From a virus, in UHGV virus genome UHGV-0209617: 64,000 nt of DNA. One strand, 5' to 3'. The translations under genes were made by a program, and so were the position numbers. Shown in pieces: positions 9,873 through 62,583 of the stretch (its first letter is position 1; each line of letters begins with the position of its first letter). The notes under the pieces are model-generated. The model did not search any database, was not told where the DNA came from, and saw only the letters and a list, made by a program, of their open reading frames with translations.

Positions 9873-10142
9873 ATGATTTATCCATTTATGACATTGGAAG
9901 ATGATACAGAAATTACTAATTCTGAAATGCAGGCAAATGGTGAGGTAAAGGTGTATGTTGAAACACCAGATGAAAAGGATTGTTTCCATAGTATGATATG
10001 TTATCTTCCTGATTATCGTGTTGAAAAGGTAGAGGGGTATTCAGAAGAAGTGGAAAAGTATCTTGATTTTATTCGCAAGGCTGCGAATCTTATCCTTGAA
10101 TTTTCTCAGGAAGGTGGATTTAACCATGCCAAAGCTGTTTAA
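9873..10142 (+). CDS. Hypothetical small acidic protein
   Basis: 89 aa ORF, no motif recognised. Confidence 0.3.
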   Translation: MIYPFMTLEDDTEITNSEMQANGEVKVYVETPDEKDCFHSMICYLPDYRVEKVEGYSEEVEKYLDFIRKAANLILEFSQEGGFNHAKAV

Positions 10143-12688: not shown

Positions 12689-12720
12689 GTATTCAAAACA
12701 TGATTAAGGAGGTAACGGAG

Positions 12721-14355: not shown

Positions 14356-15406
14356 ATATATAGGAAACAAATCAAAGCTGACTCCATACATTCTTGATAG
14401 GGTGGAACAGCTTATTGGAAAAACAGGAATTGTTGCTGACATTATGGCTGGAACAGGAACTGTGGCATTAGAATTGAGAAAAGCAGGTTATTCGGTTATC
14501 GCATCTGATGTAATGACCTATTCGTACCATCATTTGATGGTTAATCTTTGCTTAGATTCAGCTCCTTCTTTTTCTGGGCTTGTGAATCATGGAGCAATAG
14601 GCAAGAATGAGGTGGATGCATATGGTGCAATCCTGACTTATTTAAATTGCATTGAACCCAAAGAAGGTTTTTTCTTCAAGGAATTTTCTCCGGGTGGAAC
14701 ACCGCAGAATGGTTGCGACCCGAGAAAATATTTCACTACGGAAAATGCAAAGAAAATTGATGCGATTAGAGAAAAAATAAATGAGTGGATTGATAATGGA
14801 TATGTGAGCAAAGCTGAAGAATCGCTTTTAAAACATACTCTTATTATGGCAGTAAACGAGGTTGCCAATATATCTGGAACTTACGGATATTTTTTGGCTG
14901 ATTTCAAAAAGAATGCCAATGCACAGATTGATTTAAAACCTGTGGAATTTTGTTCTGTGAATTCAACTGGTCACATGGTAAAATTGGGATTTGCTGAAAA
15001 TTTAGCTGCAACAATTACAGTTGATTTGTGCTACATCGACCCTCCGTATATGAAGAGACAGTATGCTGCGAATTATCATATTCTGGAAACCATTGCACGA
15101 GGAGATTTCCCTGATGCTGTTGGTAAAAGTGGCTTGCGTGACTGGTGGGAGCAGCACTCTAAATTGTGTACCAAAACACGAGGATTACAATCGTTTGAAA
15201 AGATATTAGGTGATATGCATTGCCCGAAATTTCTGATTAGCTACAGTGAGGATGGTTTGTTTACGCTGGGGCAATTAGAAGAATGTTTTAGCAAGTTTGG
15301 AACTGTTGACGTTCAAGAAATTGATTACAATCGATTTAGAAGCAATGATAGCAAGTTGCCTAAAAAACTGAAGGAATATTTGATTTCTATAGAAAGGCAG
15401 GTATAA
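14348..15406 (+). CDS. DNA adenine methyltransferase, Dam-like (D12 class)
   Basis: ATG 14348 with AGGTGG upstream, overlapping the preceding stop by 8 nt; motifs RYIGNKSKL and DPPY. Confidence 0.8.
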   Translation: MYRYIGNKSKLTPYILDRVEQLIGKTGIVADIMAGTGTVALELRKAGYSVIASDVMTYSYHHLMVNLCLDSAPSFSGLVNHGAIGKNEVDAYGAILTYLNCIEPKEGFFFKEFSPGGTPQNGCDPRKYFTTENAKKIDAIREKINEWIDNGYVSKAEESLLKHTLIMAVNEVANISGTYGYFLADFKKNANAQIDLKPVEFCSVNSTGHMVKLGFAENLAATITVDLCYIDPPYMKRQYAANYHILETIARGDFPDAVGKSGLRDWWEQHSKLCTKTRGLQSFEKILGDMHCPKFLISYSEDGLFTLGQLEECFSKFGTVDVQEIDYNRFRSNDSKLPKKLKEYLISIERQV

Positions 15407-15410
15407 GTGA

Positions 15411-17081
15411 ATGGAGTGCATTGAAAGAATATTTTACAGAAAGATTAATCCTTCTGATTTCAAAAAGTTGTATGATATTGACAAACCAGAAGGTGGCGGT
15501 GGTCAGACATACTTGGAAGCCGCTGGTATTTCAAATGAAAAAATCGTTGATTTCCTTTCCTATGCGGAGGTTACAAACAGTCCTTTGCCAGATGAAACAA
15601 GGTCTGTTTATACATTCAATGCCTATGTTTTGGGCGATTCAAAGGGTAAATGTTCGTTTGTAGAATTTGCACCTCGCAAAGGAAGAAATAACTATCGTAT
15701 AAGCCGTCAGAACATGAAATATAAACATCCGGCATGGAGTTTGGATAATGGATTTCCCGAACCATCAAAAGGTGATGATGGCGAATACACATCTGCAGGC
15801 GATTTTGTGGGAATCATTGATAATCTTGTTATTCTTATCATAAGAACTACAAATCGGCGTTATTATGCAGGTTTTGTAAATATAGCGACAATGCCAGAGA
15901 ACTGGCCACACAATATTGGCTTAGAGGGCATTTTTAGTGGTGAACGCAGAGATGTACTAAAAATGGATGCGTATAAACTACAGTTTGTTAATGATGCCTG
16001 TAATCCATTCGGTGATTATGTCCCAACAATCGAAGAATGTAATCGAGCGACTACTGGTTGCAATGTGCTTTTGTACGGAGTTCCCGGAGCAGGAAAGAGT
16101 TGGACAATTGAACACGAATATTGTGCCGATGAAGGGTGTATGGAGCGATTGGTTTTCCATCCGGATTATATGTATTCGGATTTCGTTGGACAAATTTTGC
16201 CTGTAGTAAGGGACGATGACAAGGTTCGTTATGAGTTTACGCCGGGTCCGTTTACCAAATTATTAAAAAAAGCATATTGGAATACAGAACAGTCTTTTTA
16301 CCTTATAATAGAAGAAATAAATCGTGGTAATGCACCAGCGATATTCGGTGAAATATTTCAGCTTTTGGATAGAAAAGATGAAGACGAAATAGATGAAAAT
16401 AGGGAGATTCTCTACAAAAAAGGCACAAGTGAGTATGGAATAACAAATGCCAATATTGCACGAATCGTTTATGGCGATGAAAACCATAAGGTTCGAATTC
16501 CTGCAAATATGTCTATTTTGGGTACAATGAATACTTCTGACCAAAATGTTTTTACATTAGACACAGCATTTCAGAGAAGATGGATTATGAGAATGATTCC
16601 GAATTCATTTGATAACCATAAGTTCGCAGACAAGAAGATTTTGGATACTGATATTTCCTGGAGACAGTTCTGTGAAGCAATTAATGAGGAAATTTTGCGT
16701 AGAAACAACATCACATCTTCTGAGGATAAGCGACTTGGGGCATATTTTATCTCGGCTTCGGATTTGGAGATGAAACCAATCACAGACGGGATGAGCGAAA
16801 AAGAAAAAATCCAAGTGGAGCATAGCAACAGCAGATTTGCAGAAAAAGTATTGAAATATTTATGGGATGATGCTTTCAAATTTTCCCATCAAGATACATT
16901 TAACACAAGACAGTTTGGTAGTCTTGAAAAAGTTATCGAAGGCTTTATGAATCCTGCCAAGCCTAAAAATGAGCGTTTTCGTGTATTCAATGAGAACCTT
17001 CGTAAAATGATTTTGGATGGAGTAACAGCAGAATCAAACGAGGTTTCTGATGATGACAGCGAAGGCTCACAGGAATCTTAA
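15411..17081 (+). CDS. McrB-like GTPase subunit (LlaJI R1-like) with N-terminal DNA-recognition domain
   Basis: Walker A LLYGVPGAGKSW; McrB signature IIEEINRGNAPAIFGEIFQLLDR; TMNTSDQNVFTLDTAFQRRW; starts 4 nt after the second methyltransferase. Confidence 0.85.
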   Translation: MECIERIFYRKINPSDFKKLYDIDKPEGGGGQTYLEAAGISNEKIVDFLSYAEVTNSPLPDETRSVYTFNAYVLGDSKGKCSFVEFAPRKGRNNYRISRQNMKYKHPAWSLDNGFPEPSKGDDGEYTSAGDFVGIIDNLVILIIRTTNRRYYAGFVNIATMPENWPHNIGLEGIFSGERRDVLKMDAYKLQFVNDACNPFGDYVPTIEECNRATTGCNVLLYGVPGAGKSWTIEHEYCADEGCMERLVFHPDYMYSDFVGQILPVVRDDDKVRYEFTPGPFTKLLKKAYWNTEQSFYLIIEEINRGNAPAIFGEIFQLLDRKDEDEIDENREILYKKGTSEYGITNANIARIVYGDENHKVRIPANMSILGTMNTSDQNVFTLDTAFQRRWIMRMIPNSFDNHKFADKKILDTDISWRQFCEAINEEILRRNNITSSEDKRLGAYFISASDLEMKPITDGMSEKEKIQVEHSNSRFAEKVLKYLWDDAFKFSHQDTFNTRQFGSLEKVIEGFMNPAKPKNERFRVFNENLRKMILDGVTAESNEVSDDDSEGSQES

Positions 17082-17097
17082 AGCGAGGTGAGCGACA

Positions 17098-18378
17098 TTG
17101 GATTTAGGCTTAAACTTAAAAGTTAAATGTCATGTGAATAAAAATGGTGATGGCGATAGGTTTGTCGGGATTAAGGCTGATGCTAATCAAGCAATGGTCT
17201 ATTTTCCAATGGGGTATCGCCTGCCAGACAATGAAGAAGATATTAGGGATGATATTCTAAAATTGATTTCTGTATTAGCTGAGTTTACGGATTCAAAAGA
17301 CAAGGTATTGGCTATGCAGAAATTTGAAGCACCACAGTCTGTGAATTTTCCAATCAATGCCTATATGAATATTATCCGATACTATTTGGAACAACGTTCA
17401 TATTACACAGAAAAGGATCCTATTCTAAAGACGAGTGACAGAGGAAAAATCGACTTTGCAGCATCTTTGCGTAGAAATGTTAGCTTTTTTCAAGAAGATG
17501 GAACTCCGTTTTTTGATAAATATACAGTAAAAGGGTCAACTCCTAATGATAAAAATTTAATAACTATGATTCACAAATACTGTGTGCATGAAAGTTTTGC
17601 TCAGATGGGTTGGCTGTTTATGCCGGATGTCCCACAAGATCCACATATTGAACGAAACATTCCGCTTTTCCTCAGTGTACTGAAGAAAAAATTGGCAGTC
17701 ACGCATCTTGAAAAGGATATTCTGCTATTTGAAGCAATGATTTCTATGCTGGAATATTTGGATGAGAAAAGTGACGATAAACAATACTATTTTGGAACAG
17801 ATAGATTTGAATATGTGTGGGAAAAACTGATAGATGCAGTGTTTGGCATAAAAGAAAAGAATGATTATTTTCCACGAACCTCTTGGAAACTAAACTATGG
17901 TGACCAACGAAGAAATTATGCATTAGAGCCGGACACCATAATGCTTTGTAATGGAAAAATCTATGTCATTGATGCAAAGTATTATAGATACGGTGTAACC
18001 GGTACACCTTCGCATTTGCCGGAATCATCATCTATCAACAAGCAGATTACATATGGTGAGTACATATATAATCATAAGAAATTTAAGGATGTATATGGTG
18101 ATGATGTTCCTGTGTATAACGCATTCCTTATGCCGTATAACAAACAGGATAATCCATTTCATATCAATGAGTATTTCGCCAATATTGGTGAGGCTGATAG
18201 TGACTGGAAATATGGCAATCATAATTATGAACGGGTGCAAGGAATTGTAGTTGATATTCGTTTCTTGATGAACAATTACTATGGTTCGCACAAGAGTAAA
18301 ATTATTAAGATGGCGAAGCTCATCGAGGAAGCCCTGCAGGAAAATGCAGATACGCTTCCAGAAGAAAAGACTGAATAA
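17098..18378 (+). CDS. McrC-like PD-(D/E)xK nuclease subunit (LlaJI R2-like)
   Basis: TTG start with GAGGTG 7 nt upstream, 16 nt after the McrB-like gene; IYVIDAKYY matches the McrC-type nuclease motif. Confidence 0.7.
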   Translation: MDLGLNLKVKCHVNKNGDGDRFVGIKADANQAMVYFPMGYRLPDNEEDIRDDILKLISVLAEFTDSKDKVLAMQKFEAPQSVNFPINAYMNIIRYYLEQRSYYTEKDPILKTSDRGKIDFAASLRRNVSFFQEDGTPFFDKYTVKGSTPNDKNLITMIHKYCVHESFAQMGWLFMPDVPQDPHIERNIPLFLSVLKKKLAVTHLEKDILLFEAMISMLEYLDEKSDDKQYYFGTDRFEYVWEKLIDAVFGIKEKNDYFPRTSWKLNYGDQRRNYALEPDTIMLCNGKIYVIDAKYYRYGVTGTPSHLPESSSINKQITYGEYIYNHKKFKDVYGDDVPVYNAFLMPYNKQDNPFHINEYFANIGEADSDWKYGNHNYERVQGIVVDIRFLMNNYYGSHKSKIIKMAKLIEEALQENADTLPEEKTE

Positions 18379-18418
18379 AAAATCCGCAAGCAGTGATTAT
18401 GCTGTTTGCGGATTTTTT
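18377..18418. terminator. Bidirectional intrinsic terminator between convergent genes
   Basis: AAAAAATCCGCAAGCAG..CTGTTTGCGGATTTTTT, about 15 bp stem with one mismatch, A-run and T-run on either side. Confidence 0.6.
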
Positions 18419-19601
18419 ATTTGCCCTTTTGAACTTTGATGCGATGGGAACGTTGATTATTTGCGTTTCTACAGTTACTGCAACAATATTTATTTCTACT
18501 ATTGGATGTCTTTACTAAGAAATATTTATGGCAAGAAGGATTGGCACACTTTCTATATATTTCAGATCCGGGTTTCATGTAGAAAATAGAAAAATATAAT
18601 GCAGAAAGCAATGATGGTGCCTTCCACGACGGTTCCAGTGAATTGGGACTGTAGAAAGGTTTTATACTTCTGGTATTATGATTTATTTCCCCACTTAAAA
18701 CGAGTCGTGCGATAAGAGTAGCAGCCTCTTTTAATGGACTGTTAAATTTGCTGAAATCTGGACTACTATAGTATTCAATGCCGCCCTCGAAAGTTACAGC
18801 TTTTATTACACCAACAGAATGCATATAGTGAAACAGGAATTCAACCATTAGTCGGAGCTTCTTGGATTGAATATTGTTATTCTTGTAAGCAATAGTAACC
18901 TGGCGATACAGCGTATCATTAATTCCAGGATAATCGTATGTAAATGTTTCTCCGTTTGAAATATCATCATATTCATCAGCATTTAATTCATATGAAGGAG
19001 CATAAATCATGTCTTTTACGGTAATAGATTCTGTTTCAGAGGATTGCTGTAGTGAATCGATAGAGGCTTGATTTCTGATGCTATCATGAAATGGATGCCG
19101 ATAGGTTGAATAAGTAATTCGTGCAGTGCCATTAAGCGTAACTTGTGTCCCAAGAAGCAAATACAAAGTTAAATGTAGAATCTGTTCATAATCAAGTGAT
19201 GGTTTTTCCACTGCGGCCATAAGGAGAACTGTAGCCTTTATTCGATTCAAGACTTCTACAAGCGCTACTATATCAATTTCCGTTCCTTCGGGCGAAATAG
19301 GAAGTAGATAACCATGTTCCTCGAAAAAACCAAGGACCTTTTTTACATTGGTTGCCGGAAGCGATATCAGAGAACCGAGAACATTTTTATTTTGAAGTGA
19401 ACCGTGTGGAGTCGTTAAACATAAACCTCGGCTTCCGCTAAAGGCATAATTTATAATTTCATCATTCACGGGATAGACTGTTAATATTTTATGCGCCTGC
19501 CCGTCCGTCTTTAAGACTTCTTCTATTCTAAATGTACATTTTTTGCAACTCAAAGAAAAATAATCGTTGCTAAGATTGAAAAAATTGTCTAACTCAGTCA
19601 T
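18417..19601 (-). CDS. Hypothetical protein with C-terminal CGNR-type zinc finger
   Basis: 394 aa; C-terminus CANPSCHKYFLVKTSNSRNKYCCSNCRNANNQRSHR fits the CGNR zinc-finger pattern; N-terminal 330 aa unrecognised. Confidence 0.5.
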   Translation of the reverse strand: MTELDNFFNLSNDYFSLSCKKCTFRIEEVLKTDGQAHKILTVYPVNDEIINYAFSGSRGLCLTTPHGSLQNKNVLGSLISLPATNVKKVLGFFEEHGYLLPISPEGTEIDIVALVEVLNRIKATVLLMAAVEKPSLDYEQILHLTLYLLLGTQVTLNGTARITYSTYRHPFHDSIRNQASIDSLQQSSETESITVKDMIYAPSYELNADEYDDISNGETFTYDYPGINDTLYRQVTIAYKNNNIQSKKLRLMVEFLFHYMHSVGVIKAVTFEGGIEYYSSPDFSKFNSPLKEAATLIARLVLSGEINHNTRSIKPFYSPNSLEPSWKAPSLLSALYFSIFYMKPGSEIYRKCANPSCHKYFLVKTSNSRNKYCCSNCRNANNQRSHRIKVQKGK

Positions 19602-19639
19602 AAAAAACTACTCCATATTTCCTTGCCCCTCGTAGAAGG

Positions 19640-19800
19640 GTCTTTTTTTATGTCGAAAAGTAAGTGATTACATAAGTAATAATGTAATTATAACGCTTAC
19701 TATTGCTTGTTTCAAGCTAGTATAGTAATGAAATACACAGAAAGTAAGTGATTATATCAGAAATTTACTTACTATACTGAAATTCTTATACTTAAAGACA
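19640..19800. repeat. AT-rich repeat cluster at cargo/prophage boundary
   Basis: AGTAAGTGATTA at 19663 and 19745; CTTACTAT at 19707 and 19770; short inverted matches between them. Confidence 0.4.
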
Positions 19801-20035
19801 GTGAAGGACAACCAAACTTTATATACAGCGGAGGTGTTTTTCACATCCCTGTTTCAATGTTCATCGCCTGATCAGCGATGCCCAGAGCGGAGAAACGGAC
19901 ACAAGTAAATATCAGTCAACCCACTGGGACGGTTGGCCAGCTAAGAAATGAGGATTTCATTCTTATGGCCAATTATTATGGGAAGTTCAGTGTGGGTCCT
20001 CATTTCGGTTTTCAGACCGAAGGAGGGTCTACACG

Positions 20036-20545
20036 ATGGACAAATTTGAAAATCTACAGACAAGCAACGAGAAGCAGTATTACATTCCTTTGGAAGTAAC
20101 CGCAGAAACTATCAGAGATTTTGGCATCAACCCTAAAGATGTGGTATGGACGAGAATCGGGAACAAGCCTAAAAAGGTTGTTATGATTCCCGTAACCGAG
20201 GAGCAGTACAAAACATTTATGCGTCCTCTGTGGCGTGAGGACAAGCGTCAGCAAAGACAGGAGCCGATGGCATCGCTGGATAAGATGTACGAAAAAACCG
20301 AGTACGAAGCGGCTGATACCGACTCTGACCTTGAAGCGAATATTATGAAGAAAATGCTGATTGATGAGCTTCACAAGGCACTGGATGAACTGGAAGAAAT
20401 CGACCGCACCATTATGAAGATGTACAGCAATAACCATAGCGAAGCCGAAATCGGACAGACTATCGGTATGAGCCAGAAGGGTGTTAATAAACGTAAGCAC
20501 AAGGTGCTGCTGAAACTTAACACCAGATTGAAAGACTTCAGATAA
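20036..20545 (+). CDS. Sigma-70 family (region 4 HTH) regulator
   Basis: AAGGAGGG 9 nt upstream; C-terminal SEAEIGQTIGMSQKGVNKRKHKVLLKL is a sigma-70 region 4-type HTH. Confidence 0.6.
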   Translation: MDKFENLQTSNEKQYYIPLEVTAETIRDFGINPKDVVWTRIGNKPKKVVMIPVTEEQYKTFMRPLWREDKRQQRQEPMASLDKMYEKTEYEAADTDSDLEANIMKKMLIDELHKALDELEEIDRTIMKMYSNNHSEAEIGQTIGMSQKGVNKRKHKVLLKLNTRLKDFR

Positions 20546-20619
20546 GGGATAATACCCTGCCTGCTCTGCCACAGCATTATCCGGTGGAGCAGGTTTTTAT
20601 ATTGTTTTCAAAAAATAGT

Positions 20620-20665
20620 GGTTCTTAAAACAACCGTATATGTCCTTTCACTCTCAGAGGGGCAA
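20620..20665 (+). promoter_or_regulatory. Conserved bipartite element, copy 1 (candidate phage promoter or operator)
   Basis: GGTTCTTAAAAC, 9 nt, TGTCCTTTCACTCTCAGAGGGGCAA; second copy at 25564-25608 with the same spacing. Confidence 0.4.
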
Positions 20666-20864
20666 ACAAGGCACCTCGGAAAGGACGGTGTCAAACGATG
20701 ACAACCAGATGTAGAACAGGCACGAGGGGCTGCGGCAGTCAGGAACTCGACCGAGAGTTATCTGATGCGCTTATCGCAATCAGTGTCGTGTCAAAAAGAA
20801 TCGCTGACCGTATTACAGCAGTCAGCGGCAGAGAAAAAAAAGAATATGGAAGGAGGAAGCCTAA

Positions 20865-21227
20865 ATGGGAAAGATGAACGAGTTGTCTATGCTCACAGAG
20901 GAACTTCGCAAATGTGGTGAAACGCTTATCAGCATTTCAGAGGAATTGGCGGGTATGTTCAGCGGCTCTGCGGAAGAAAAGCAGCCTGTCAAAAAGAGTG
21001 CTGCTAAGAATAAAGCCGCCGAGGCGACGAAGCCAGAAGCGCCGAAGAAAAAGGCTCTCACGCTGGAAGATGTCCGTGCCGTGTGTGCAGACAAATCCCG
21101 CAGTGGTTTTACGGCAGAAGTCAAAGCAATCCTGAATAAGCACGGTGTGGAAAAGCTGTCGGAGGTTAATCCAGCAGAATATAAGGCACTGCTTGCTGAA
21201 GTGGAGGTGCTGGGAAATGCCGGATAA
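20865..21227 (+). CDS. Hypothetical phage protein (Lys/Ala-rich)
   Basis: 120 aa; strong GGAGG upstream; first gene of the replication module. Confidence 0.45.
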   Translation: MGKMNELSMLTEELRKCGETLISISEELAGMFSGSAEEKQPVKKSAAKNKAAEATKPEAPKKKALTLEDVRAVCADKSRSGFTAEVKAILNKHGVEKLSEVNPAEYKALLAEVEVLGNAG

Positions 21228-22389
21228 ACAGAAGGTGAATTGCACCGCAGGTGCAAGAGAGGCTGGCCTGGGCCACGCAGTTTTATCAGCATCATCCAGT
21301 CACCGCTGGCTTGCCTGCCCTCCTTCGGCTTTGCTTTGTGCGAAAGTCGGAGATACCATAAGCGAGTTTGCTATGCAGGGTACCGATGCCCACAGCCTTT
21401 GCGAACATAAGGTGAAAACAGCATTGGGGCAGCAGTCGAAAGACCCTACAGAGAATTTAACGTTCTTTGACGAGGAGATGGCAGACTGTTCCGATATGTA
21501 TGCTCAGTATGTGATGGAGCAGCTTGGGGCGGCAAAGGAAAAGTGCAAAGACCCAATCGTTCTGATTGAACAGCGTCTTGATTTTTCCAAGTGGGTACCG
21601 CAGGGGTTCGGCACCGGGGACTGTGTCATTGTAGCTGATGAAACGCTGACAATCATTGACATGAAATACGGAGTCGGGATTCTTGTTTACGCAGAGAAAA
21701 ATCCGCAAATGATGTGTTACGCATTGGGAGCTTTGGCGCTGTTTGATGGGATTTACGATATAACACAGGTATCAATGACAATCTTCCAGCCGCGAAGAGA
21801 CAATGTCAGCACATACACCATTTCTAAAGTAGAACTTCTGAAATGGGCGGATGAGGTGCTTGCTCCGACCGCACAGCTTGCAGCCAAGGGAGAAGGAGAA
21901 TACAAGGCCGGAGACCACTGCCAGTTCTGCAAGGTCAAAGCCAAGTGTCGCAAAAGAGCCGAATACAACCTGGAACTTGCCCGTTATGATTTTGAAATGC
22001 CTTCCACCCTTGAAGACGATGAGATTGAGGCCATTTTAGAAAAAGCAGACGCGCTGGTATCCTGGGCGGGCGATGTCAAGGAATATGCATTGCAGCAGGC
22101 AGTCAGCGGCAAGCAGTGGAAAGACTGGAAGATTGTCGAAGGACGCTCCAACAGGAAGTATGTAAATGAAACAGCCGTGGCAGATACGGTCAAGGATGCA
22201 GGTTATGACCCGTTTGAACATAAGGTTCTGGGGATTACCGCAATGACCAAACTACTCGGCAAGGCAAAATTTGAAGAATTGCTCTCCGGGTTTATTGAAA
22301 AAACACAGGGCAAGCCAACATTGGTACCTATGTCGGACAAACGTCCGGCAATGAATACAGCAGCTAACGATTTTAAGGAGGACAACTAA
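21217..22389 (+). CDS. PD-(D/E)xK nuclease family protein, DUF2800-like
   Basis: ATG 21217 (MPDKQKVN); N-terminal SASSSHRWLACPPSAL; sits upstream of DUF2815-like and polymerase A genes as in related phage replication modules. Confidence 0.65.
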   Translation: MPDKQKVNCTAGAREAGLGHAVLSASSSHRWLACPPSALLCAKVGDTISEFAMQGTDAHSLCEHKVKTALGQQSKDPTENLTFFDEEMADCSDMYAQYVMEQLGAAKEKCKDPIVLIEQRLDFSKWVPQGFGTGDCVIVADETLTIIDMKYGVGILVYAEKNPQMMCYALGALALFDGIYDITQVSMTIFQPRRDNVSTYTISKVELLKWADEVLAPTAQLAAKGEGEYKAGDHCQFCKVKAKCRKRAEYNLELARYDFEMPSTLEDDEIEAILEKADALVSWAGDVKEYALQQAVSGKQWKDWKIVEGRSNRKYVNETAVADTVKDAGYDPFEHKVLGITAMTKLLGKAKFEELLSGFIEKTQGKPTLVPMSDKRPAMNTAANDFKEDN

Positions 22390-22390
22390 T

Positions 22391-22957
22391 ATGTCAAAGA
22401 ATTACACAAATCCTACCAAGGTAATCACAGGAGTCAATACTCGTTGGTCTTACGCAAATGTGTGGGATCCGAAATCCATCAACGGCGGTGCACCGAAGTA
22501 CAGCGTGAGCCTTATCATTCCGAAGTCTGATACCGCAACGGTAAACAAGATAAAGGCAGCTATCCAGTCTGCTTATGAAGAGGGCGAATCCAAGCTGAAG
22601 GGCAATGGCAAGAGTGTACCTGCTCTTTCCATTATTAAGACCCCTCTTCGTGATGGTGATTTGGAGCGTCCGGATGATGTAGCGTATGCAGGCTGTTACT
22701 TCGTCAATGCCAACTCTGCAACTGCTCCCGGTATTGTTGACGCAGAACGTCAGCCGATTCTTGACCGCAGTGAGGTATACAGCGGTGTGTATGGCCGTGC
22801 ATCCATCAACTTCTATGCCTTCAATTCCAATGGGAATAAGGGTATCGCCTGCGGTCTTAATAACCTGCAGAAGATCCGTGATGGTGAGCCTCTTGGTGGA
22901 AAGAGCCGTGCCGAGGACGATTTTGCTACCGATGCAGATGAAGATTTTCTCGCATAA
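22391..22957 (+). CDS. DUF2815-like phage protein (putative ssDNA-binding)
   Basis: 188 aa between the DUF2800-like gene and the polymerase. Confidence 0.55.
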   Translation: MSKNYTNPTKVITGVNTRWSYANVWDPKSINGGAPKYSVSLIIPKSDTATVNKIKAAIQSAYEEGESKLKGNGKSVPALSIIKTPLRDGDLERPDDVAYAGCYFVNANSATAPGIVDAERQPILDRSEVYSGVYGRASINFYAFNSNGNKGIACGLNNLQKIRDGEPLGGKSRAEDDFATDADEDFLA

Positions 22958-23184
22958 GGAGGACGGCTTATTATGACAACCATTCAGAGTATGATGCTGT
23001 GTGTTTCGGTGCCGTGATGGGAACTTTCATTGCAGATGTGGGGTTTCTCATCAAGTGTGTCATTGACAAGCACAAGGAGAAAAAGAGTAAGAAAAAAGAA
23101 GAGTCTGCTGATAAGGCAGAGTAAATGACAGCGGGCGGCGTAGGTGTATTCTTCGCCGCCTTGCTTATATGAAGGAGTGACAAT

Positions 23185-25176
23185 ATGGGAAAAATACAAA
23201 CATTGTCCTTGGACTTGGAGACTTATTCTGATGTGGATTTGCAGAAGTGCGGGGTCTATAAATATGCCCAGTCTCCTAATTTTGAAATTCTGCTATTTGG
23301 TGTATCCGTAAATGGCGGTGCGGTTGTGGTCTATGACCTGGCACAGGGCGATACCGTGCCGATTGAAATTATCAAAGCACTGACCGATGAAACCGTAACC
23401 AAATGGGCATATAATGCGGCTTTCGAGAGAATCTGTTTGTCAGTGTGGCTGCAGAGAAACTACCCGGAATATTTTTGCAGTTACAGCATCAATGAGGATA
23501 CTGTCGGGGATTATCTGGATCCTTCTGCCTGGAAATGCTCCATGATATGGGCGGCATACATGGGACTGCCGTTATCCCTTGCGGGAGCCGGCACGGTGTT
23601 GGGATTGGAGGAACAGAAACTCAAGGAGGGCAAAGACCTTATAAGGTATTTCTGTGTTCCCTGCAAGCCGACCAAAGTGAACGGCGGCAGGACACGCAAT
23701 CTGCCGGAGCATGATATGGAGAAATGGAATACCTTCGTTTTATATAACAAGCGAGATGTGGAAGTGGAGACGTCCATACAGGACAAACTAAAAAAATTCC
23801 CTGTGCCGGATTTTGTGTGGGATGAGTACCACCTCGACCAGGAAATCAACGACCGTGGGATTGCTCTTGATATGGCGGTAGTGGAGAATGCCATTGCTTT
23901 TGATGCAAAATCCAAGGCGGAACTGGCAGAGAAAATGCAGGAACTGACTGACCTTGATAACCCAAACTCCGTGGTACAGATGAAGCAGTGGCTATTGGAT
24001 AACGGTTTGGAGATGGACAGCCTTGGAAAAAAGAAAGTAGCACAGGCGATAAAAACTGCTCCGAAGGAACTGGCGGAGGTTCTGCAGCTGCGACAACAAT
24101 TATCCAAGTCCTCCGTAAAAAAGTATCAGGCAATGCAGAATGCTGTCTGTGAGGATGGCAGAGCCAGAGGGATGTTTCAGTTTTACGGGGCAAACAGAAG
24201 CGGCAGATGGGCAGGCAGAATGATACAGCTGCAAAATCTGCCTCAGAACCATATGCCGGATTTGGAACAGGCACGAGGACTGGTGAAGTCTGGTAATTAC
24301 GCAGCGATGGAACTCTTATATGATGATATCCCCGATACTCTATCGCAGCTTATCCGCACTGCCTTTGTGCCGAGACCGGGTATGAAATTTGTCGTGGCGG
24401 ACTTCTCGGCAATTGAAGCAAGGGTGCTGTCGCATCTTGCAAAAGAAAACTGGCGAACAGAAGTCTTTGCAAATAACAGGGATATTTATTGTGCATCGGC
24501 ATCAGCCATGTTCGGTGTTCCTGTGGAAAAACATGGTGTCAACGGAAACCTCCGTCAAAAGGGCAAAATTGCTGAATTGGCTCTGGGCTACGGCGGTTCA
24601 GTCGGTGCTTTGAAAGCAATGGGTGCCATTGATATGGGACTTTCCGAAGAGGAATTACAGCCACTGGTGGATTCTTGGAGAGCCGCCAACCCTAACATTG
24701 TGAAGTTCTGGTGGGAGGTTGACCGATGTGTCAAGGAAACTGTGAAAAAGAGAGTGCCGACCGAAACGCATGGCATCCGTTTTATCTATCAGAGCGGGAT
24801 GCTTTTTATCAAGCTCCCTTCCGGCAGACAGCTTTCCTATGTGAAGCCTCGCATGGGAGAAAACCGTTTTGGCGGTGAGTCCGTAACCTATGAAGGTGTC
24901 GGAGGTACAAAGAAATGGGAACGCATCGAAAGTTATGGTCCAAAGTTTGTGGAAAATATCGTGCAGGCAATCAGCAGGGACATTTTGGCGCATTCCATGA
25001 GAACCTTGTCGCACTGCTTTATCTGCGGTCATGTGCATGATGAATTGATTATTGAGTGTAGTATGGGAGTTTCCCTTGATGCCGTGTGTGAACAGATGGG
25101 CAGGACTCCGGCCTGGATACCGGGTCTGCTTCTCCGTGCAGATGGGTACGAATGCAGCTTCTATAAAAAAGATTAA
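23185..25176 (+). CDS. Family A DNA polymerase (3'-5' exonuclease plus polymerase domains)
   Basis: Exonuclease motif LSLDLETYS; polymerase motif A VVADFSAIEARVLSHLA; motif B KIAELALGYGGSVGALKAM; motif C HVHDELIIE. Confidence 0.85.
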   Translation: MGKIQTLSLDLETYSDVDLQKCGVYKYAQSPNFEILLFGVSVNGGAVVVYDLAQGDTVPIEIIKALTDETVTKWAYNAAFERICLSVWLQRNYPEYFCSYSINEDTVGDYLDPSAWKCSMIWAAYMGLPLSLAGAGTVLGLEEQKLKEGKDLIRYFCVPCKPTKVNGGRTRNLPEHDMEKWNTFVLYNKRDVEVETSIQDKLKKFPVPDFVWDEYHLDQEINDRGIALDMAVVENAIAFDAKSKAELAEKMQELTDLDNPNSVVQMKQWLLDNGLEMDSLGKKKVAQAIKTAPKELAEVLQLRQQLSKSSVKKYQAMQNAVCEDGRARGMFQFYGANRSGRWAGRMIQLQNLPQNHMPDLEQARGLVKSGNYAAMELLYDDIPDTLSQLIRTAFVPRPGMKFVVADFSAIEARVLSHLAKENWRTEVFANNRDIYCASASAMFGVPVEKHGVNGNLRQKGKIAELALGYGGSVGALKAMGAIDMGLSEEELQPLVDSWRAANPNIVKFWWEVDRCVKETVKKRVPTETHGIRFIYQSGMLFIKLPSGRQLSYVKPRMGENRFGGESVTYEGVGGTKKWERIESYGPKFVENIVQAISRDILAHSMRTLSHCFICGHVHDELIIECSMGVSLDAVCEQMGRTPAWIPGLLLRADGYECSFYKKD

Positions 25177-25188
25177 AGCATAAAAAAT

Positions 25189-25214
25189 GGAGAGACGAAA
25201 TAAATCGTCTCTCC
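25189..25214. terminator. Hairpin after polymerase gene (possible terminator)
   Basis: GGAGAGACG, 8 nt loop, CGTCTCTCC (9 bp stem); A-run upstream but no clear T-run downstream. Confidence 0.35.
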
Positions 25215-25563
25215 TGAAAGTCCAATCGGTTTGAGCATCTGTGAGAGGCTTGATTGGTTCTGTCAAATCCCAAAATGCAAGGAGAGCCGGATTTCTCTGA
25301 CTCTCTCAAGTATGTATCCTTGAATACATACCCCAATTAGTGTCCATATTATACAGCTTCCGTTCGAAATATGCAAGACCTAAATGAAATTTTTCAAGGC
25401 AGACATTCGTGCTGATAAATCCGGATGAATGACGATTGCTGCTACTGCGGGATTGACGGATATTTTATAGTCATCTGTGATTTTCTCAAATTCTCGAATG
25501 AAGGCCTTTATTTCGGTTTTGGCATATGTAGCAATTTTAAGAGCAAAAAAAGATTAAAAATAC

Positions 25564-25608
25564 GGTTCTTAAAACGCAGGGTTTTGTCCTTTCACTATCA
25601 GAGGGCAA
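25564..25608 (+). promoter_or_regulatory. Conserved bipartite element, copy 2
   Basis: GGTTCTTAAAAC, 9 nt, TGTCCTTTCACTATCAGAGGGCAA, about 30 bp upstream of the Rha-like gene. Confidence 0.4.
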
Positions 25609-25638
25609 GACCCTACTTTTATGAAAGGCGGTATTTTT

Positions 25639-26304
25639 ATGAAAGAATTGATACCCAAAGACGAATACGGCATCTTTGCCGATGCACATGACACCGCAAG
25701 AGTAGACAGCTTGTTTGTAGCGGAGTTTTTTGAGAAGAACCATAAAGAGGTGCTGCGAGATATCCGCAAAATCACTGACCCCACATCCGGGTTAAGTGAA
25801 GAATTCCGACAGCGCAATTTTGCGCCGTCCTCATACACCAACAACCAGAATAAAAAGCAGCCGTGCTACTGCATGACTCGTGATGGATTCACAATGTTGG
25901 CAATGGGATATACCGGGCAAAAGGCAATGAAGTTCAAAGAACTGTACATTCACAGATTTAATGAGATGGATGCTTTTATTAAGAACCTGGTATCTGCAAG
26001 ACAGGAGTTTCCTCTTCTGACTGAAAATATCAAACTGCTCCATGACAAGCCGAAGCCTTACCACTTCAGCAATGAGTGCGATATGTTAAACCGCATCGTG
26101 CTTGGTATGACGGCAAAGCAGTTCAGACTTGCCAATAACATCGAAAAAGGCAAAAGTATCAGACCGTATCTGACCAAAGAACAAATTGAGATGCTGGAAA
26201 TCCTGCAGAAAGTTGATGTGGGTCTGCTCGTAGCATTCCCTGCTTACGAAGACAGAAAACGCCATCTTGAATGGTACAAAACCAAATTAGAGGAGGACAA
26301 ATAA
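25639..26304 (+). CDS. Rha family phage regulatory protein
   Basis: VDSLFVAEFFEKNHKEVLRDIRKI and CYCMTRDGFTMLAMGYTGQKAMKFKELYIHRFNEM resemble the Rha N-terminal domain. Confidence 0.65.
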   Translation: MKELIPKDEYGIFADAHDTARVDSLFVAEFFEKNHKEVLRDIRKITDPTSGLSEEFRQRNFAPSSYTNNQNKKQPCYCMTRDGFTMLAMGYTGQKAMKFKELYIHRFNEMDAFIKNLVSARQEFPLLTENIKLLHDKPKPYHFSNECDMLNRIVLGMTAKQFRLANNIEKGKSIRPYLTKEQIEMLEILQKVDVGLLVAFPAYEDRKRHLEWYKTKLEEDK

Positions 26305-26306
26305 AG

Positions 26307-26531
26307 ATGTTTTATGTGAAAGAACAGCTGAATGATGCGATGGAGGTTTCCATTGAAATTAACGATGAGAATGTATTCTGCCGCTGCCCGTCCTGCGGGT
26401 CTGAGGTACAGGTTGACCTGGCAAAGGTATTTTCCGATGGTGACGGTGATCTGTTTGGCACATCGGTACTTTGCGACAGCTGCAGCAGAAAAATGATGGG
26501 AGGAAAGCCTTGTGGGAGTGAACAGGTATAA
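26307..26531 (+). CDS. Small zinc-ribbon protein
   Basis: ATG 26307 with GAGGAGGA upstream; two CxxC pairs (CRCPSCG, CDSCS). Confidence 0.45.
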   Translation: MFYVKEQLNDAMEVSIEINDENVFCRCPSCGSEVQVDLAKVFSDGDGDLFGTSVLCDSCSRKMMGGKPCGSEQV

Positions 26532-26943
26532 CAGCGAGGGTTATCCTGCTCCGACCACCTATGTGGCACTCACTTCCATCGAAAAAGAAACGAAAGCGGC
26601 AAGAGCGTACAGACCGATTGTGTATGTATGCTCTCCGTTTTCCGGAGATATTGCCGGGAACATTGCAAATGCACGAAAGTACAGTCGATTTGCTGTAGAG
26701 CAGGGGTATATCCCCATTGCTCCGCATTTGCTGTTTCCGCAGTTTCTTAATGATAACGATTTAAGGTCACGTGAGCTGGGGCTTCATTTTGGAAATGTGC
26801 TGATGAGCCATTGCAGCGAGGTTTGGGTGTTCGGAGAAATTGTATCAGCCGGAATGGATGCTGAAATCAGGAGAGCCAAAAGAAAAAATTACAGGCTGCG
26901 CTACTTTGGCAGTGATTTGAAGGAGGTTACAGAAAATGCGTGA
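26512..26943 (+). CDS. DUF4406-like protein (nucleoside 2-deoxyribosyltransferase-like fold)
   Basis: GTG start after GGGAGGAAAG; pattern VYVCSPFSGD..IAPHLLFP..HCSEVWVFGE..AGMDAEIRRAK matches the family as remembered. Confidence 0.4.
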   Translation: MGVNRYNSEGYPAPTTYVALTSIEKETKAARAYRPIVYVCSPFSGDIAGNIANARKYSRFAVEQGYIPIAPHLLFPQFLNDNDLRSRELGLHFGNVLMSHCSEVWVFGEIVSAGMDAEIRRAKRKNYRLRYFGSDLKEVTENA

Positions 26944-29266
26944 TTTGAGTATTGCCTATGGGAACGGCAGGACGGCAAAATTCTGGTCGAATAAAACGAT
27001 TCGATTTGATGAATTATGTGACCGCCTGCGCAGTCCTATTTATACTTCGGAAACGGCAGAGGAATATCCGAAACTGCCCAAAGGTCAGCGTGATGATATC
27101 AAGGACAAAGGCGGATTTGTTGCCGGACATTTGCGTGATAACCGCAGACAGGCAAATAAAGTGGTGTGCCGTTCTATGTTGGTGTATGACCTTGACAGCA
27201 TCGAAGCAGAGTTTTTGAAGGACATCGGCAGCAAAATTTCCAACAAGGGATGCTATTACACTACCCACAGCCATACCCCGGAGCATCCGAGGGCGAGAAT
27301 GATTATTCCGGTCAGCCGTGATATGTCTCCGGATGAGTTCAATGCGGCTGCAAGATATTATGCCCAAGATAACGGCTTTATCAGTATGCTTGATCCGTGT
27401 TCGTTTTCTCCACATCAGCTGATGTATTGGCCGACCTGTTCGTCCAATGGAGAATACCTCTTTGACACAATAGACGGTGGCTGGCTTGACCCAGATACGA
27501 TTTTTGCGAAGCATCCTAATTGGAGAGATTGTTCGCTGCTTCCTACCACACCGAAGGAGAGTAAGGCATCCGACCATAATGTAAAACAGCAGAAAGACCC
27601 GCTTGAAAAAGAGGGGGTGGTCGGTCTGTTCAACCGTGTTTATTTCCCTATCAGCACGGCAATTGATGAGTTCCTTCAAGGTGTATATGAGCCGACCGCA
27701 GATACCTCCGGCAGATATGATTTTATCCCCGGCGAGGGTTCTGCGGGTGTTGTAATTTATGATGATAAATTCTCCTACAGCCACCATGCAACTGACCCTG
27801 CAGGCGGTAAACTGTGCAATGCCTTTGACCTTGTCCGCCTTCATAAATTCAGTGAGGACGATGAGAAAAAATCCTATAAGCAGATGTGCGAGTTTGCCAT
27901 GACCCTTGATAAAGTCAAACTGCAGGATCTTGAGGAAAAGAAACAAAGGGCAGCAGATGATTTTTCGGAGAATGCCAACTGGCAGACCAAACTTCGCTAT
28001 ATGCCAAGAAGCAAGTGCCTGGAAAACAGCGTGTGGAATCTGATGCTGATATTAAACAATGACCCGGATTTTGCAAATATTGCCTTCAATGAACTGGTAG
28101 GCAGAGTGCAGATTACGGGTGCCATTCCGTGGACAAGACCCAGTGACAATAAGTTCTGGAGGGATGCGGATACAGCACAGCTGAAGGCACTCATTGACAT
28201 TCGTTATGAAACTTTCTCAAGCAGAAACCATGATGTGGCTTTTACTAAGGTGGTTGAGGACAGACATTTCAATCCCCTTCGTGATTGGCTTGACGCATTG
28301 CCAGAATGGGATGGTGTGGTAAGGCTTGAAAATCTGTATATCGATTTTCTTGGTGCGAATAACACGGTATATGTTAAGGCTGCGACCAGAAAATCCTTTG
28401 TGGCGGCTGTAGCGAGAATTTACGAGCCGGGTACAAAGTTTGATTCGGTTGTTGTATTGGTGGGTCCGCAGGGCTGTGGTAAGTCTACGATTTTTGCAAG
28501 GATGGGAAATGAGTATTATTCCGACAGCTTGAATCTGACGGATATGAAGGACAAGAGCGGTGCGGAGAAACTGCAGGGATACTGGATTTTGGAACTAGGC
28601 GAACTGGCAGGACTCAAAAAAGCGGATGTTGAGGTAGTGAAAGCCTTTGTCAGCCGTACCGATGATATTTACCGCCCTTCCTATGGTAGAACGATTGAAA
28701 GCCACCCAAGGCAGTGCATTATTGTGGGGACAACAAACTCGGAGTCCGGCTTTCTGCGTGATATTACGGGAAACCGCAGATTCTGGCCTATTAAGGTCAC
28801 AGGTGTCAGCAAAAGAAAATCATGGGATATGACTGATGAAGAAGTCCTGCAAATGTGGGCGGAGGCAAAGTACCTGTATGGGCAGGGCGAGCCTTTGTAT
28901 CTGAATTCGCAGGAAAGCAGTGAAGCATTGAGCGAACAGATTGATGCAATGGAAAGCGATGAGCGCCAGGGCATAGTCGAGGAGTACTTAAATACACTTC
29001 TGCCGGATAACTGGAACAGCATGGATCTGTATGAGAGAAGGAATTTTCTGACAGACAGCGCTTCGGCAAAGGGTACGGTACAAAGAAAGACCGTAAGCAA
29101 TGCGGAAATATGGAGCGAGTGTTTTTGCAGAAACTTGTCCGACCTCAAGCCCTCTGACTCCTATGCGATAGCTGCCCTTATGACCAAAGTGGACGGTTGG
29201 CAGAGAACCGACAAAATCAGAAAGCTTGCCATCTATGGAAGGCAGAGGATTTACGAGAGGTTGTGA
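26936..29266 (+). CDS. Primase/helicase-like protein, VirE family (P-loop NTPase)
   Basis: 776 aa; Walker A VVLVGPQGCGKST in the C-terminal half; N-terminal half resembles phage/plasmid primase domains. Confidence 0.7.
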   Translation: MRDLSIAYGNGRTAKFWSNKTIRFDELCDRLRSPIYTSETAEEYPKLPKGQRDDIKDKGGFVAGHLRDNRRQANKVVCRSMLVYDLDSIEAEFLKDIGSKISNKGCYYTTHSHTPEHPRARMIIPVSRDMSPDEFNAAARYYAQDNGFISMLDPCSFSPHQLMYWPTCSSNGEYLFDTIDGGWLDPDTIFAKHPNWRDCSLLPTTPKESKASDHNVKQQKDPLEKEGVVGLFNRVYFPISTAIDEFLQGVYEPTADTSGRYDFIPGEGSAGVVIYDDKFSYSHHATDPAGGKLCNAFDLVRLHKFSEDDEKKSYKQMCEFAMTLDKVKLQDLEEKKQRAADDFSENANWQTKLRYMPRSKCLENSVWNLMLILNNDPDFANIAFNELVGRVQITGAIPWTRPSDNKFWRDADTAQLKALIDIRYETFSSRNHDVAFTKVVEDRHFNPLRDWLDALPEWDGVVRLENLYIDFLGANNTVYVKAATRKSFVAAVARIYEPGTKFDSVVVLVGPQGCGKSTIFARMGNEYYSDSLNLTDMKDKSGAEKLQGYWILELGELAGLKKADVEVVKAFVSRTDDIYRPSYGRTIESHPRQCIIVGTTNSESGFLRDITGNRRFWPIKVTGVSKRKSWDMTDEEVLQMWAEAKYLYGQGEPLYLNSQESSEALSEQIDAMESDERQGIVEEYLNTLLPDNWNSMDLYERRNFLTDSASAKGTVQRKTVSNAEIWSECFCRNLSDLKPSDSYAIAALMTKVDGWQRTDKIRKLAIYGRQRIYERL

Positions 29267-60140: not shown

Positions 60141-60285
60141 CAGTTATTGGTCATATACATAACGAGTAGCAAACGGCGCTAATAAACGTGCGTATATAAA
60201 TTATAAAATAAGCACGAATGTTAAAATTATCTTTACAACTGTGCTTATTTAATTTATAATATAAGCACGGTTGGAGGTGATTGCC

Positions 60286-61754: not shown

Positions 61755-61793
61755 CCCTATGTGGAACTTGAGGTTCTGCATAGGGTATTTTTT
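61755..61793 (+). terminator. Intrinsic terminator after AbiEii
   Basis: CCCTATG..CATAGGG hairpin followed by TATTTTTT. Confidence 0.55.
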
Positions 61794-61949
61794 GTTATCG
61801 CTGGTTCTAAAAATGGTTCTTGTTGTCCTTGTACTGTTGAGGTGAAGAATCATGACGGATTTCCGTTCAAAGAGTGCATTTCTGTCATGGGACTGTTAAA
61901 GGGGTTCGATTTGCCCTGATTTGCCGCATATAAGTAGGAGGGATGCATC

Positions 61950-62515: not shown

Positions 62516-62583
62516 CTTATATGCCAAATAGTAGTTGAATAATATCGCAAACAGAGTGATATATAGTGTCGGAGGTGATGAGC

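Follow-up and report, generated by a model that had tools for sequence, protein, structure and literature searches.

The window considered here is a 64,000-nucleotide stretch of the virus genome UHGV-0209617. At 20036-20545 it carries a small gene, called the regulator gene below, whose product ends in a helix-turn-helix of the kind found in region 4 of sigma-70 factors. Directly behind this gene lies a bipartite DNA element that recurs elsewhere in the window, each time in front of an operon. The locus raises the question of what the element does, and whether the neighbouring regulator is the protein that reads it.

The comparison of sequences points to an answer. The element is probably a phage-specific, regulator-dependent early-to-middle promoter that is used three times, and it likely depends on the protein encoded at 20036-20545. 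This is an ordinary kind of phage gene cascade, although one that is undescribed for Candidatus (Ca.) Heliusvirales, the group to which this prophage of a gut bacterium is assigned and in which the closest annotated phage is classified.

A Repeated Bipartite Element

An earlier interpretation of this DNA, made from its letters alone and called the sequence-only reading here, held that the element occurs twice with identical spacing. This is confirmed. The pattern GGTTCTTAAAAC-N9-TGTCCTTTCACT[C/A]TCAGAGGG, or in joined form GGTTCTTAAAAC-N9-TGTCCTTTCACTNTCAGAGGG, matches the plus strand without error at 20620-20661 (site 1) and 25564-25605 (site 2). No further match is found in the 64 kb with up to three mismatches, none of 100 dinucleotide shuffles contains any match, and none is expected by chance. 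The second half of the pattern, searched alone, is likewise confined to the two sites; the first half alone is not significant, with nine matches at up to two mismatches versus 5.6 expected.

The element had also been called duplicated. There are indeed two strong copies, but the total is not two. A weight matrix derived from the sites of relatives reveals a third, diverged copy at 61803-61844 (site 3), in front of an excision/integration operon. Sites 1 and 2 score 56 and site 3 reaches 31.0, whereas no other position in the window exceeds -4.9 and 30 shuffled sequences give at most 7.3. The three copies share the plus strand and lie between genes, and each precedes an operon. The same scan places no site before the packaging and structural genes at about 33-58 kb, and no copy in the divergent control region 19600-20036.

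The consensus consists of box 1 (GGTWCTTAA, positions 1-9), a variable 12-nt spacer, box 2 (TGTCCTnTyACT, positions 22-33), three nucleotides, and a purine block (RRAGGG, positions 37-42). A pyrimidine at position 36 followed by a purine at position 37 makes a conserved step. When the spacing was allowed to vary in the search, 57 of 61 unique matches had 12 nt between the boxes, and 55 of 65 had 3 nt between box 2 and the purine block. The spacer is thus fixed in length and not conserved in sequence. Summed over the consensus, the conserved core carries about 46 bits of information. Sites lie on the gene strand, 35-110 nt ahead of start codons. The element also contains repeats: an imperfect inverted one spans box 2 and the purine block (TGTCCTTT/AGAGGGCA, 6 of 8 positions), and both boxes contain GTyCTT, two helical turns apart.

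The genes behind the sites form three groups. Site 1 was correctly placed upstream of a replication operon, for an exonuclease, a single-stranded DNA-binding protein, and the family-A DNA polymerase PolA follow it. Site 2 does stand just upstream of a Rha-like gene, as had been noted, but that gene probably does not start at 25621. Because this first ATG is not conserved in relatives, the probable start codon is put at 25639. Site 3 precedes genes for an HTH_38 protein, an excisionase-like protein, and a tyrosine integrase.

Conservation and Co-variation in Related Phages

The sequence-only reading could have been refuted by relatives that encode the regulator and have no element. The relatives show the opposite. 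In IMG/VR, 50 loci encode regulator relatives (31-88% identity), and the element lies directly 3' of the gene in all 50. Most of these loci have a second copy 4.5-6 kb further on, after PolA. Scanning IMG/VR for the motif first yields at least 120 stretches with the same three contexts, save for a few without recognisable neighbours. Among the matches listed there are 110 unique sites. Forty-five lie after the regulator gene and before the exonuclease operon, and 29 lie about 10 nt past the PolA stop codon and before Rha. Thirteen precede homologues of the HTH_38 protein and are strong copies at the position homologous to site 3. The remaining 23 have no assigned downstream gene; many of them are post-PolA sites before a Zn-ribbon gene that replaces Rha.

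The same picture emerges from a motif-first scan of 185,579 bacterial genomes, one per species, which gives 65 stretches with 76 sites. The regulator gene precedes 30 of these sites and PolA precedes 33, and every site before an exonuclease operon has the regulator gene upstream. The hosts are Clostridia, Negativicutes, Bacilli, Tissierellia, and Erysipelotrichaceae, a diversity which argues for a recognition factor that is encoded by the phage rather than specific to the host. Cultured bacteria that carry the motif include Acetobacterium wieringae DSM 1911, Acidaminococcus intestini DSM 21505, Megasphaera cerevisiae DSM 20462, Veillonella seminalis ADV4313-2, and Eubacterium callanderi FD. 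The same sequence context is also found in contigs from human gut metagenomes.

The closest annotated phage is NatCom_9291 of [Clostridium] innocuum, which is classified in Ca. Heliusvirales. It is the only member of the annotated phage collection with a clear homologue of the regulator (52% identity). It has three sites: after the regulator gene, after PolA, and before a third operon, where the site scores 48.9. This third operon is annotated as hypothetical protein, excisionase, hypothetical protein, and integrase, in the same order as in the window.

In other Heliusvirales that share the replication module, the place of the regulator is taken by an unrelated protein with Sigma70_r4_2. In these phages a different bipartite motif is repeated, again after the regulator gene and after PolA (Table 1), and behind each alternative motif stand a hairpin and a Shine-Dalgarno sequence. 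In NatCom_43819 there are exactly three copies of its motif: after the regulator gene, after PolA, and after a terminator in front of an operon with HTH and recombinase genes. The weight matrix of the present element finds nothing in the phages with alternative motifs. This co-variation of regulator and motif is the strongest available support for the region-4 protein and the element being a cognate pair.

Two other proteins can be rejected as the cognate factor. NatCom_9291 and NatCom_43819 have completely different motifs, yet their HTH_38 proteins are similar, also in the recognition helix. Many relatives have retained site 2 while an unrelated Zn-ribbon gene has taken the place of Rha.

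In the lineage of Streptococcus phage Javan105 (L176), the T-rich start of the second box is also the U-tract of a terminator, and the -35-like box lies in the loop of the terminator hairpin (L176 at about 5430-5500 and 10030-10100; the locus L174 at about 9920-9990). This layout is an apparent second, different way to overlap a terminator with the next promoter.

Transcription Signals around the Sites

Both site 1 and site 3 are preceded, at about 6-25 nt, by a strong intrinsic terminator. For site 1 the distance from the terminator of the regulator gene is about 20 nt, and relatives have an equivalent hairpin with a T-run immediately 5' of the site, the order of gene, terminator, and site being the same in all of them. 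Site 3 begins about 6 nt past a terminator that follows an AbiEi/AbiEii gene pair; relatives also terminate there.

It had been stated that the element does not resemble a canonical sigma-A promoter, and this is borne out by a sigma-70 consensus scan of 19500-26000, which finds no promoter-like site at 20600-20660 or 25540-25610, that is, at sites 1 and 2. Neither a conserved A at -11 nor a conserved T at -7 can be assigned in box 2. A sigma-A reading that takes TAAAAC as the -10 element was rejected, since it has no conserved -35 element and none whatever at site 2. With terminators directly before sites 1 and 3 and no sigma-A-like promoter at sites 1 and 2, the downstream operons therefore require a promoter exactly there.

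In promoters of the extracytoplasmic function (ECF) type, the -35 element has GGAAC/AAC, the -10 element has CGT(C), and the two are about 16-17 bp apart. Box 1 contains GGTACTT, which resembles the ECF-type -35 element GGAACTT. When GGTAC-N16-TGTCC is set against this consensus, the geometry fits and the resemblance is partial, the AAC and CGT cores not being exact.

Two further functions can be set aside. Processive or terminator-specific antitermination was rejected because the terminators lie 5' of the motif at sites 1 and 3. A replication origin or iteron is unlikely, as all copies are co-oriented and their placement relative to a Shine-Dalgarno sequence and a start codon is fixed.

Hairpins at the Predicted Start of the Transcripts

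The purine block can pair with a pyrimidine run 3-18 nt downstream, in a helix that starts at positions 37-38. This hairpin had been missed by the sequence-only reading. Its arms change in a compensating manner across sites: GAGGT/ACCTC, GAGAAT/ATTTTC, GAAAGG/TTTTTC, GAAGGGC/GCTCTTC, and GAGGA/TCCTC. The mean best stem is 4.93, versus 3.25 when the downstream sequence is shuffled, and the complementarity of the purine block to the sequence behind it exceeds all 1000 re-dealings of the arms among the sites. The arms were compared by arm-matching scripts, the MAFFT alignment having two subgroups' arms one column out of register.

A hairpin from positions 37-38 together with the Y36/R37 step suggests a transcription start near Y36/R37. 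For site 1 the predicted start is near 20655/20656, and a Shine-Dalgarno sequence (GGAAAGGA, 20678-20685) and an ATG at 20698 follow 3' of the hairpin. In the mRNA decay of Bacillota, a 5'-terminal stem-loop would protect the 5' end.

A second feature that had escaped notice is a longer hairpin at site 2, which encloses part of the element. It qualifies as an intrinsic terminator, whereas the core hairpin at site 1 has merely 8 bp and no U-tract. Extended pairing between the spacer and the downstream sequence, together with a T-run, is concentrated in the post-PolA sites of relatives, which have no separate terminator; the mean pairing scores are 9.1 and 8.8 in the post-PolA classes versus 6.1 and 4.9 elsewhere. 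The hairpin at site 2 looks like the terminator for transcripts from the PolA operon, enclosing the next promoter. A transcript started inside the hairpin would carry the 3' arm only.

Alternative Explanations

The sequence-only reading had left three functions side by side: a cognate promoter, an operator, and an RNA leader motif. The first is favoured by the presence of the element in 50 of 50 loci, the terminators, the rigid geometry, and the co-variation; the other two are less favoured.

It is unlikely that the element acts in RNA. If it did, the boxes would be transcribed from an upstream promoter, and their role in the leader would be that of a hairpin, of an anti-Shine-Dalgarno sequence (CCTTTC with GAAAGG), or of a terminator/antiterminator switch, to which a phage protein might bind. 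Pairing of box 2 with the purine block does fold into a hairpin in all three copies, and at site 2 this becomes a 15-bp stem with a U-tract. Box 2 is also complementary to downstream Shine-Dalgarno sequences, a pairing that RNAalifold chooses, and the complementarity between spacer and downstream sequence is site-specific, exceeding all 500 re-dealings. However, the RNAalifold consensus from 26 class-1 sequences (the box 2/Shine-Dalgarno pairing only) amounts to -1.32 kcal/mol with essentially no covariation. Box 2 stays constant where the purine block changes, and the compensation lies with the downstream arm instead. The distances from box 1 to box 2 and on to the purine block are rigid while the downstream hairpin has loops of 3 to 18 nt, the opposite of what is expected of an RNA structure. 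The long upstream pairing occurs mostly in post-PolA sites, as would be expected of an additional role in termination and not of the core function. Terminators stand just 5' of sites 1 and 3, with no promoter-like sequence in between from which the boxes could be transcribed. Finally, the element matches no Rfam family at the gathering threshold in the window; around site 1 the sole match at E <=10 is a spurious minus-strand Histone3 below threshold.

It is quite unlikely, too, that the element is an operator. Here a repressor or other regulator (Rha, the HTH_38 protein with its Cys-rich part, or the product of the gene at 18417-19601) would bind over an unrecognised host-type promoter, and the region-4 protein would not be the cognate factor. 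The imperfect dyad TGTCCTTT...AGAGGGCA and the GTyCTT common to the two boxes would suit such a protein, and the HTH_38 protein has a weak Sigma70_r4_2-like match and sits behind site 3 in several lineages. Yet the divergent switch region 19600-20036, where a lysogeny operator is expected, holds no copy. The replacement of Rha speaks against that protein, and the HTH_38 protein, being alike in lineages with different motifs, cannot set the specificity; the region-4 regulator does differ between them. The scan of 19500-26000 also finds no sigma-A-type promoter at sites 1 and 2 for an operator to overlap.

A promoter for an alternative sigma factor of the host or for an unrecognised phage RNA polymerase, linked to the region-4 gene by synteny only, is highly improbable: the information content is far above that of ordinary sigma-A promoters and reminiscent of phage-polymerase promoters, and box 1 resembles the ECF-type -35 element, but the same motif spans very different host classes that share no such specific sigma factor, lineages with another region-4 protein carry another motif at the same sites, and no RNA polymerase is found among the annotated genes of the window, the annotation having covered part of the open reading frames (ORFs).

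The Regulator Protein

The sequence-only reading had taken the protein encoded at 20036-20545 for a sigma factor, and this part of it is not supported. A Pfam search recognises one domain only, Sigma70_r4_2 at residues 110-161, so that the protein belongs with the sigma-70 family as far as region 4 is concerned; Sigma70_r2 has no match in it. The NCBIfam sigma models align only from residue ~67, and TIGR02937 does so over model positions 70-165 only, with a score of 41.6 that is below its cutoff of 42.9. A profile search of the PDB with diverse relatives finds region 4 of sigma factors and LuxR-type domains only, and nothing N-terminal of residue ~80. Profile-based searching for homologues had given only close relatives (75-90% identity), and using the protein of the relative L045 as the query added the diversity. 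In BFVD a single full-length relative is found, automatically named "ECF sigma factor".

AlphaFold2, run with a 37-sequence alignment (pLDDT, the predicted local distance difference test score, 74), predicts a strand-helix-strand-strand-helix fold for residues 15-75 (pLDDT about 75-85), then a disordered acidic linker, and then a helical region-4 domain. The N-terminal domain matches no solved structure in the PDB. It is conserved nonetheless: P18, E20, Y58, W66, K70, and R74 are invariant among the relatives, in which the linker can hold insertions of up to ~45 residues. On these models the regulator joins a region 4 to a novel domain that is not region 2; lacking a detectable region 2, it does not qualify for the sigma family and cannot be called a sigma factor on this evidence.

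Some homologues of the regulator (P0151, P0156, P0157, and P0159; 217 amino acids, some on Granulicatella contigs) have an N-terminal extension, MKIHITKQNERKVYKYF...GEDDVTEVENKLLHS. A similar N-terminus is seen in the regulators of the NatCom_43819/Javan105 lineage (L174:4748-5377 and L176:4819-5430), which are otherwise unrelated. The resemblance suggests a modular family in which N-terminal modules have been shuffled onto region 4.

The regulator gene is preceded by a DUF2800 RNA motif, which lies in its leader. The motif is also found 5' of the homologous gene in the relatives L001 and L012, and has no match at the gathering score in more distant relatives. In the window it overlaps an ORF at 19878-20099, and it is not positioned before the DUF2800 exonuclease gene.

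A Model for Early-to-Middle Transcription

From the arrangement of these features we infer that the regulator binds the element, where transcription starts, and when, and a mechanism can be proposed. After induction, a host sigma-A-type promoter 5' of the DUF2800 RNA leader would express the regulator, and this transcript would end at the terminator behind the gene. The helix-turn-helix of region 4 would bind box 1, at about -36 to -28, and recruit or redirect the host RNA polymerase. Box 2, at about -15 to -4, would stand in for the -10 element; candidates for reading it are the N-terminal domain of the regulator, host sigma-A in a remodelled complex, or another factor. Transcription would start near Y36/R37, and each mRNA would open with the stem-loop of purine block and pyrimidine run, possibly stabilising its 5' end. 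Three operons would be activated together: recombination and replication, Rha through primase-helicase, and HTH-Xis-Int. At site 2, the hairpin that terminates the PolA operon would enclose the promoter of the next. The regulator may act either as a sigma-like factor or as an activator of the host holoenzyme.

Several points weigh against this reading. Without a detectable region 2, the regulator cannot be assumed to melt DNA or to read box 2. The inverted repeat of box 2 and the purine block may have a role at the RNA level or in the binding of a dimer. In a few sites (site 3 and those of the relatives L047 and L084) the purine block doubles as the Shine-Dalgarno sequence, and the leader is then only 13-15 nt long if position 37 is the start. 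The permutation and shuffle tests ignore phylogenetic relatedness and so overstate significance. Finally, the literature on Heliusvirales yielded no data on 5' ends, binding, or expression; no described sigma factor or promoter was found in it, and the taxonomic paper that defines Ca. Heliusvirales contains nothing on transcriptional control.

A bolder form of the proposal is conceivable and, on balance, doubtful. The regulator would be a non-canonical initiation factor in which the beta-rich N-terminal domain replaces region 2 and, with an ECF-type region 4, steers the host polymerase to a 42-bp promoter. The family would have diversified into mutually orthogonal pairs of factor and promoter across Ca. 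Heliusvirales, a gut phage order that ranks among the most widespread, in hosts from Clostridia to Negativicutes and Bacilli.

Prophages of Ca. Heliusvirales are among the commonest phages of human gut Bacillota. If the regulator does control the element, one small protein and a 42-bp signal would explain how induction couples replication, primase/helicase expression, and excision, and three transcription units per genome could be annotated from sequence alone. Pairs of regulator and motif that are specific to a lineage would offer orthogonal switches of expression, ready for use in anaerobes that are hard to manipulate genetically. The system would also be a concrete case for asking whether a region 4 joined to a non-sigma domain can replace a sigma factor.

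Comparison with Known Systems

Phages encode sigma factors with cognate middle or late promoters, for instance gp28 and gp33/34 of SPO1, Xpf of PBSX, and gp36 of phiEco32. The regulator resembles such factors, and ECF (group 4) sigma factors, in several ways. Its region 4 is of the ECF type, it has about 170 amino acids, region 4 follows an acidic linker that varies in length, the proposed promoter is bipartite with fixed spacing, and an early product would redirect transcription to the next class of genes. The differences are that its N-terminal domain is beta-alpha-beta-beta-alpha and not all-helical, that the -10-like box has 12 bp and is unlike any known -10 element, and that the regulator gene is not autoregulated by its own motif.

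The Ltr superfamily is the closest described system. It comprises RinA, ArpU, LtrA (with a Sigma70_r4 region), LtrB/DUF1492, and LtrC, which are activators of Gram-positive phages (Quiles-Puchalt et al. 2013, PMC3753634). In these phages the activator gene is followed by its own terminator, the recognition sequence directly distal to it, and the promoter under its control. Activators recognise their own sites only, families do not cross-react, and no other phage factor is needed. The target is the late operon for terS, morphogenesis, and lysis, which has one site made of 7-nt direct repeats (PMC3753634).

Both the regulator and the Ltr proteins are small phage proteins with a C-terminal helix-turn-helix like that of sigma region 4, and gene, terminator, and site 1 in the window match the Ltr architecture. 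Profiles for ArpU and for "transcriptional activator" weakly match the C-terminal part of the regulator. For phrog_248 ("transcriptional activator") the E value is 4.8e-4; for TIGR01637 (phage_arpU) the score is 19.5 bits against a cutoff of 43.1, which places the regulator outside that family. A tblastn search found no similarity to Staphylococcus phage 37, the LtrA example, whose genome is within the searched collection. In contrast to the Ltr systems, three early-to-middle operons (replication, primase/helicase, and excision) are concerned here and not a late terS operon, the site is a bipartite 42-bp unit in the -35 and -10 positions that is used three times and not a set of 7-nt direct repeats, and the conserved N-terminal domain of the regulator has no counterpart in Ltr proteins.

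At the middle promoters of T4, a phage protein (MotA) reads a box that replaces the -35 element, the host polymerase is thereby enabled to work at promoters that it would pass over on its own, and prereplicative and replication genes are switched on. The normal -10 element of sigma-70 is kept and a second protein, AsiA, is required (PMC2988021, PMC6755090). The proposal made here shares the box that replaces the -35 element and the switching on of replication genes. It differs in that box 2 is not sigma-A-like, no analogue of AsiA is known, and the proteins have no sequence relationship. Phage sigma factors and the appropriation of sigma by T4 are thus functional analogies.

The DUF2800 RNA motif (RF02960) is also a conserved non-coding element of the early region, found at the same locus and in the same phage group. 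It is nevertheless a separate element, which lies 5' of the regulator gene.

Features and Neighbouring Genes

Table 1. Positions of the element, its signals, and its operons in the window, and the motifs of three other phages.
Feature	Coordinates	Strand	Details
Site 1	20620-20661	+	box 1 GGTTCTTAA 20620-20628; box 2 TGTCCTTTCACT 20641-20652; purine block AGAGGG 20656-20661
Site 2	25564-25605	+	box 1 25564-25572; box 2 25585-25596; purine block 25600-25605
Site 3, diverged copy	61803-61844	+	GGTTCTAAA-N12-TGTCCTTGTACT-gtt-GAGGTG
Regulator gene	20036-20545	+	169 aa; beta-rich N-terminal domain ~13-75, acidic linker of variable length, sigma-70 region-4 helix-turn-helix ~110-165
DUF2800 RNA (Rfam RF02960)	19849-20002	+	81.8 bits vs gathering score 60.2; leader of regulator gene
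Candidate sigma-A-type early promoter of regulator gene	19764-19792	+	TTTACT-17-TATACT; consensus scan, 9/12 matches; weak
Stronger promoter, divergent from the candidate at 19764-19792	19715-19687	-	faces gene 18417-19601
Intrinsic terminator of regulator gene	20559-20598	+	12-bp stem then UUUUAU; -23.8 kcal/mol, z -3.35
Predicted 5'-proximal hairpin, site-1 transcript	20657-20677	+	GAGGGGC...GCACCTC
Site-2 terminator hairpin	25578-25620 (15 pairs within 25578-25614)	+	15 bp then ACTTTTAT/ACUUUUAU; -21.5 kcal/mol, z -4.98; encloses box 2 and purine block
Intrinsic terminator after AbiEi/AbiEii genes	61755-61796	+	14-bp stem then UAUUUUUU; folded stretch -25.8 kcal/mol, z -3.8
Operon 1, behind site 1	20698-25176	+	59-aa ORF, phrog_408 protein, DUF2800/PD-(D/E)XK exonuclease, Enc34-type single-stranded DNA-binding/annealing protein, family-A DNA polymerase
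Operon 2, first part, behind site 2	25621-29266	+	Rha-family regulator, small ORF, DUF7768 (nucleoside deoxyribosyltransferase-like) protein, VapE-type primase/helicase
Operon 3, behind site 3	61950-64000	+	HTH_38 and Cys-rich protein 61950-62327; excisionase-like ORF from 62324; tyrosine integrase running off the window (Pfam, translations)
Motif of NatCom_43819			GGGGTAAAA-N9-TTTTCTTTGCCTGTnACTT
Motif of Streptococcus phage Javan105			GrGGTTAAAAACTCGTCCTTTTTCTTTGCCTGTGATGTG
Motif of NatCom_11393			TTTTCGGCCAA-N8-yTCACCTCCAGTGGGTAGT

Site 2 sits 388 nt past the PolA stop codon, compared with about 10 nt in relatives, because the window has an insertion of ~370 bp at 25179-25545, between the stop codon and the site. 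The insertion is flanked by 13-bp direct repeats (AAAAAAGATTAAA, at 25166-25178 and 25546-25558) and is absent from the relatives L001, L012, and L020. It holds a minus-strand abiF RNA (RF03085) at 25257-25221, with TATAAT at 25353-25348 and, 17 nt further upstream, TTGCAT; a terminator lies at 25214-25189. The insertion looks like a small mobile cassette for a small RNA.

A 15-codon ORF at 61851-61898 on the plus strand begins 8 nt beyond the site-3 purine block and precedes the HTH_38 gene, which has its own Shine-Dalgarno sequence. The GAGGTG of site 3 could serve as the Shine-Dalgarno sequence for this ORF, which could be a leader peptide or a product of chance. Just 5' of the terminator and site 3, at 60271-61721 on the plus strand, lies the gene pair for an AbiEi-like antitoxin and an AbiEii nucleotidyltransferase toxin.

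Directly left of the phage control region, at 12700-18378 on the plus strand, is a restriction-modification cluster with an N6_Mtase/Eco57I-like methylase, a D12 methylase, an AAA_5 ATPase, and an LlaJI-type endonuclease. The genes for the ATPase and the endonuclease are the same neighbours in L178-L180, which are independent contigs from metagenomes; the prophage therefore probably carries the cluster.

The gene at 18417-19601 on the minus strand is divergent from the regulator gene. It encodes a protein of 394 amino acids, assigned to phrog_30403 and otherwise with a sub-threshold zf-CGNR match only. Its position is kept in relatives, at 31-93% identity, and its product is a candidate for lysogeny control.

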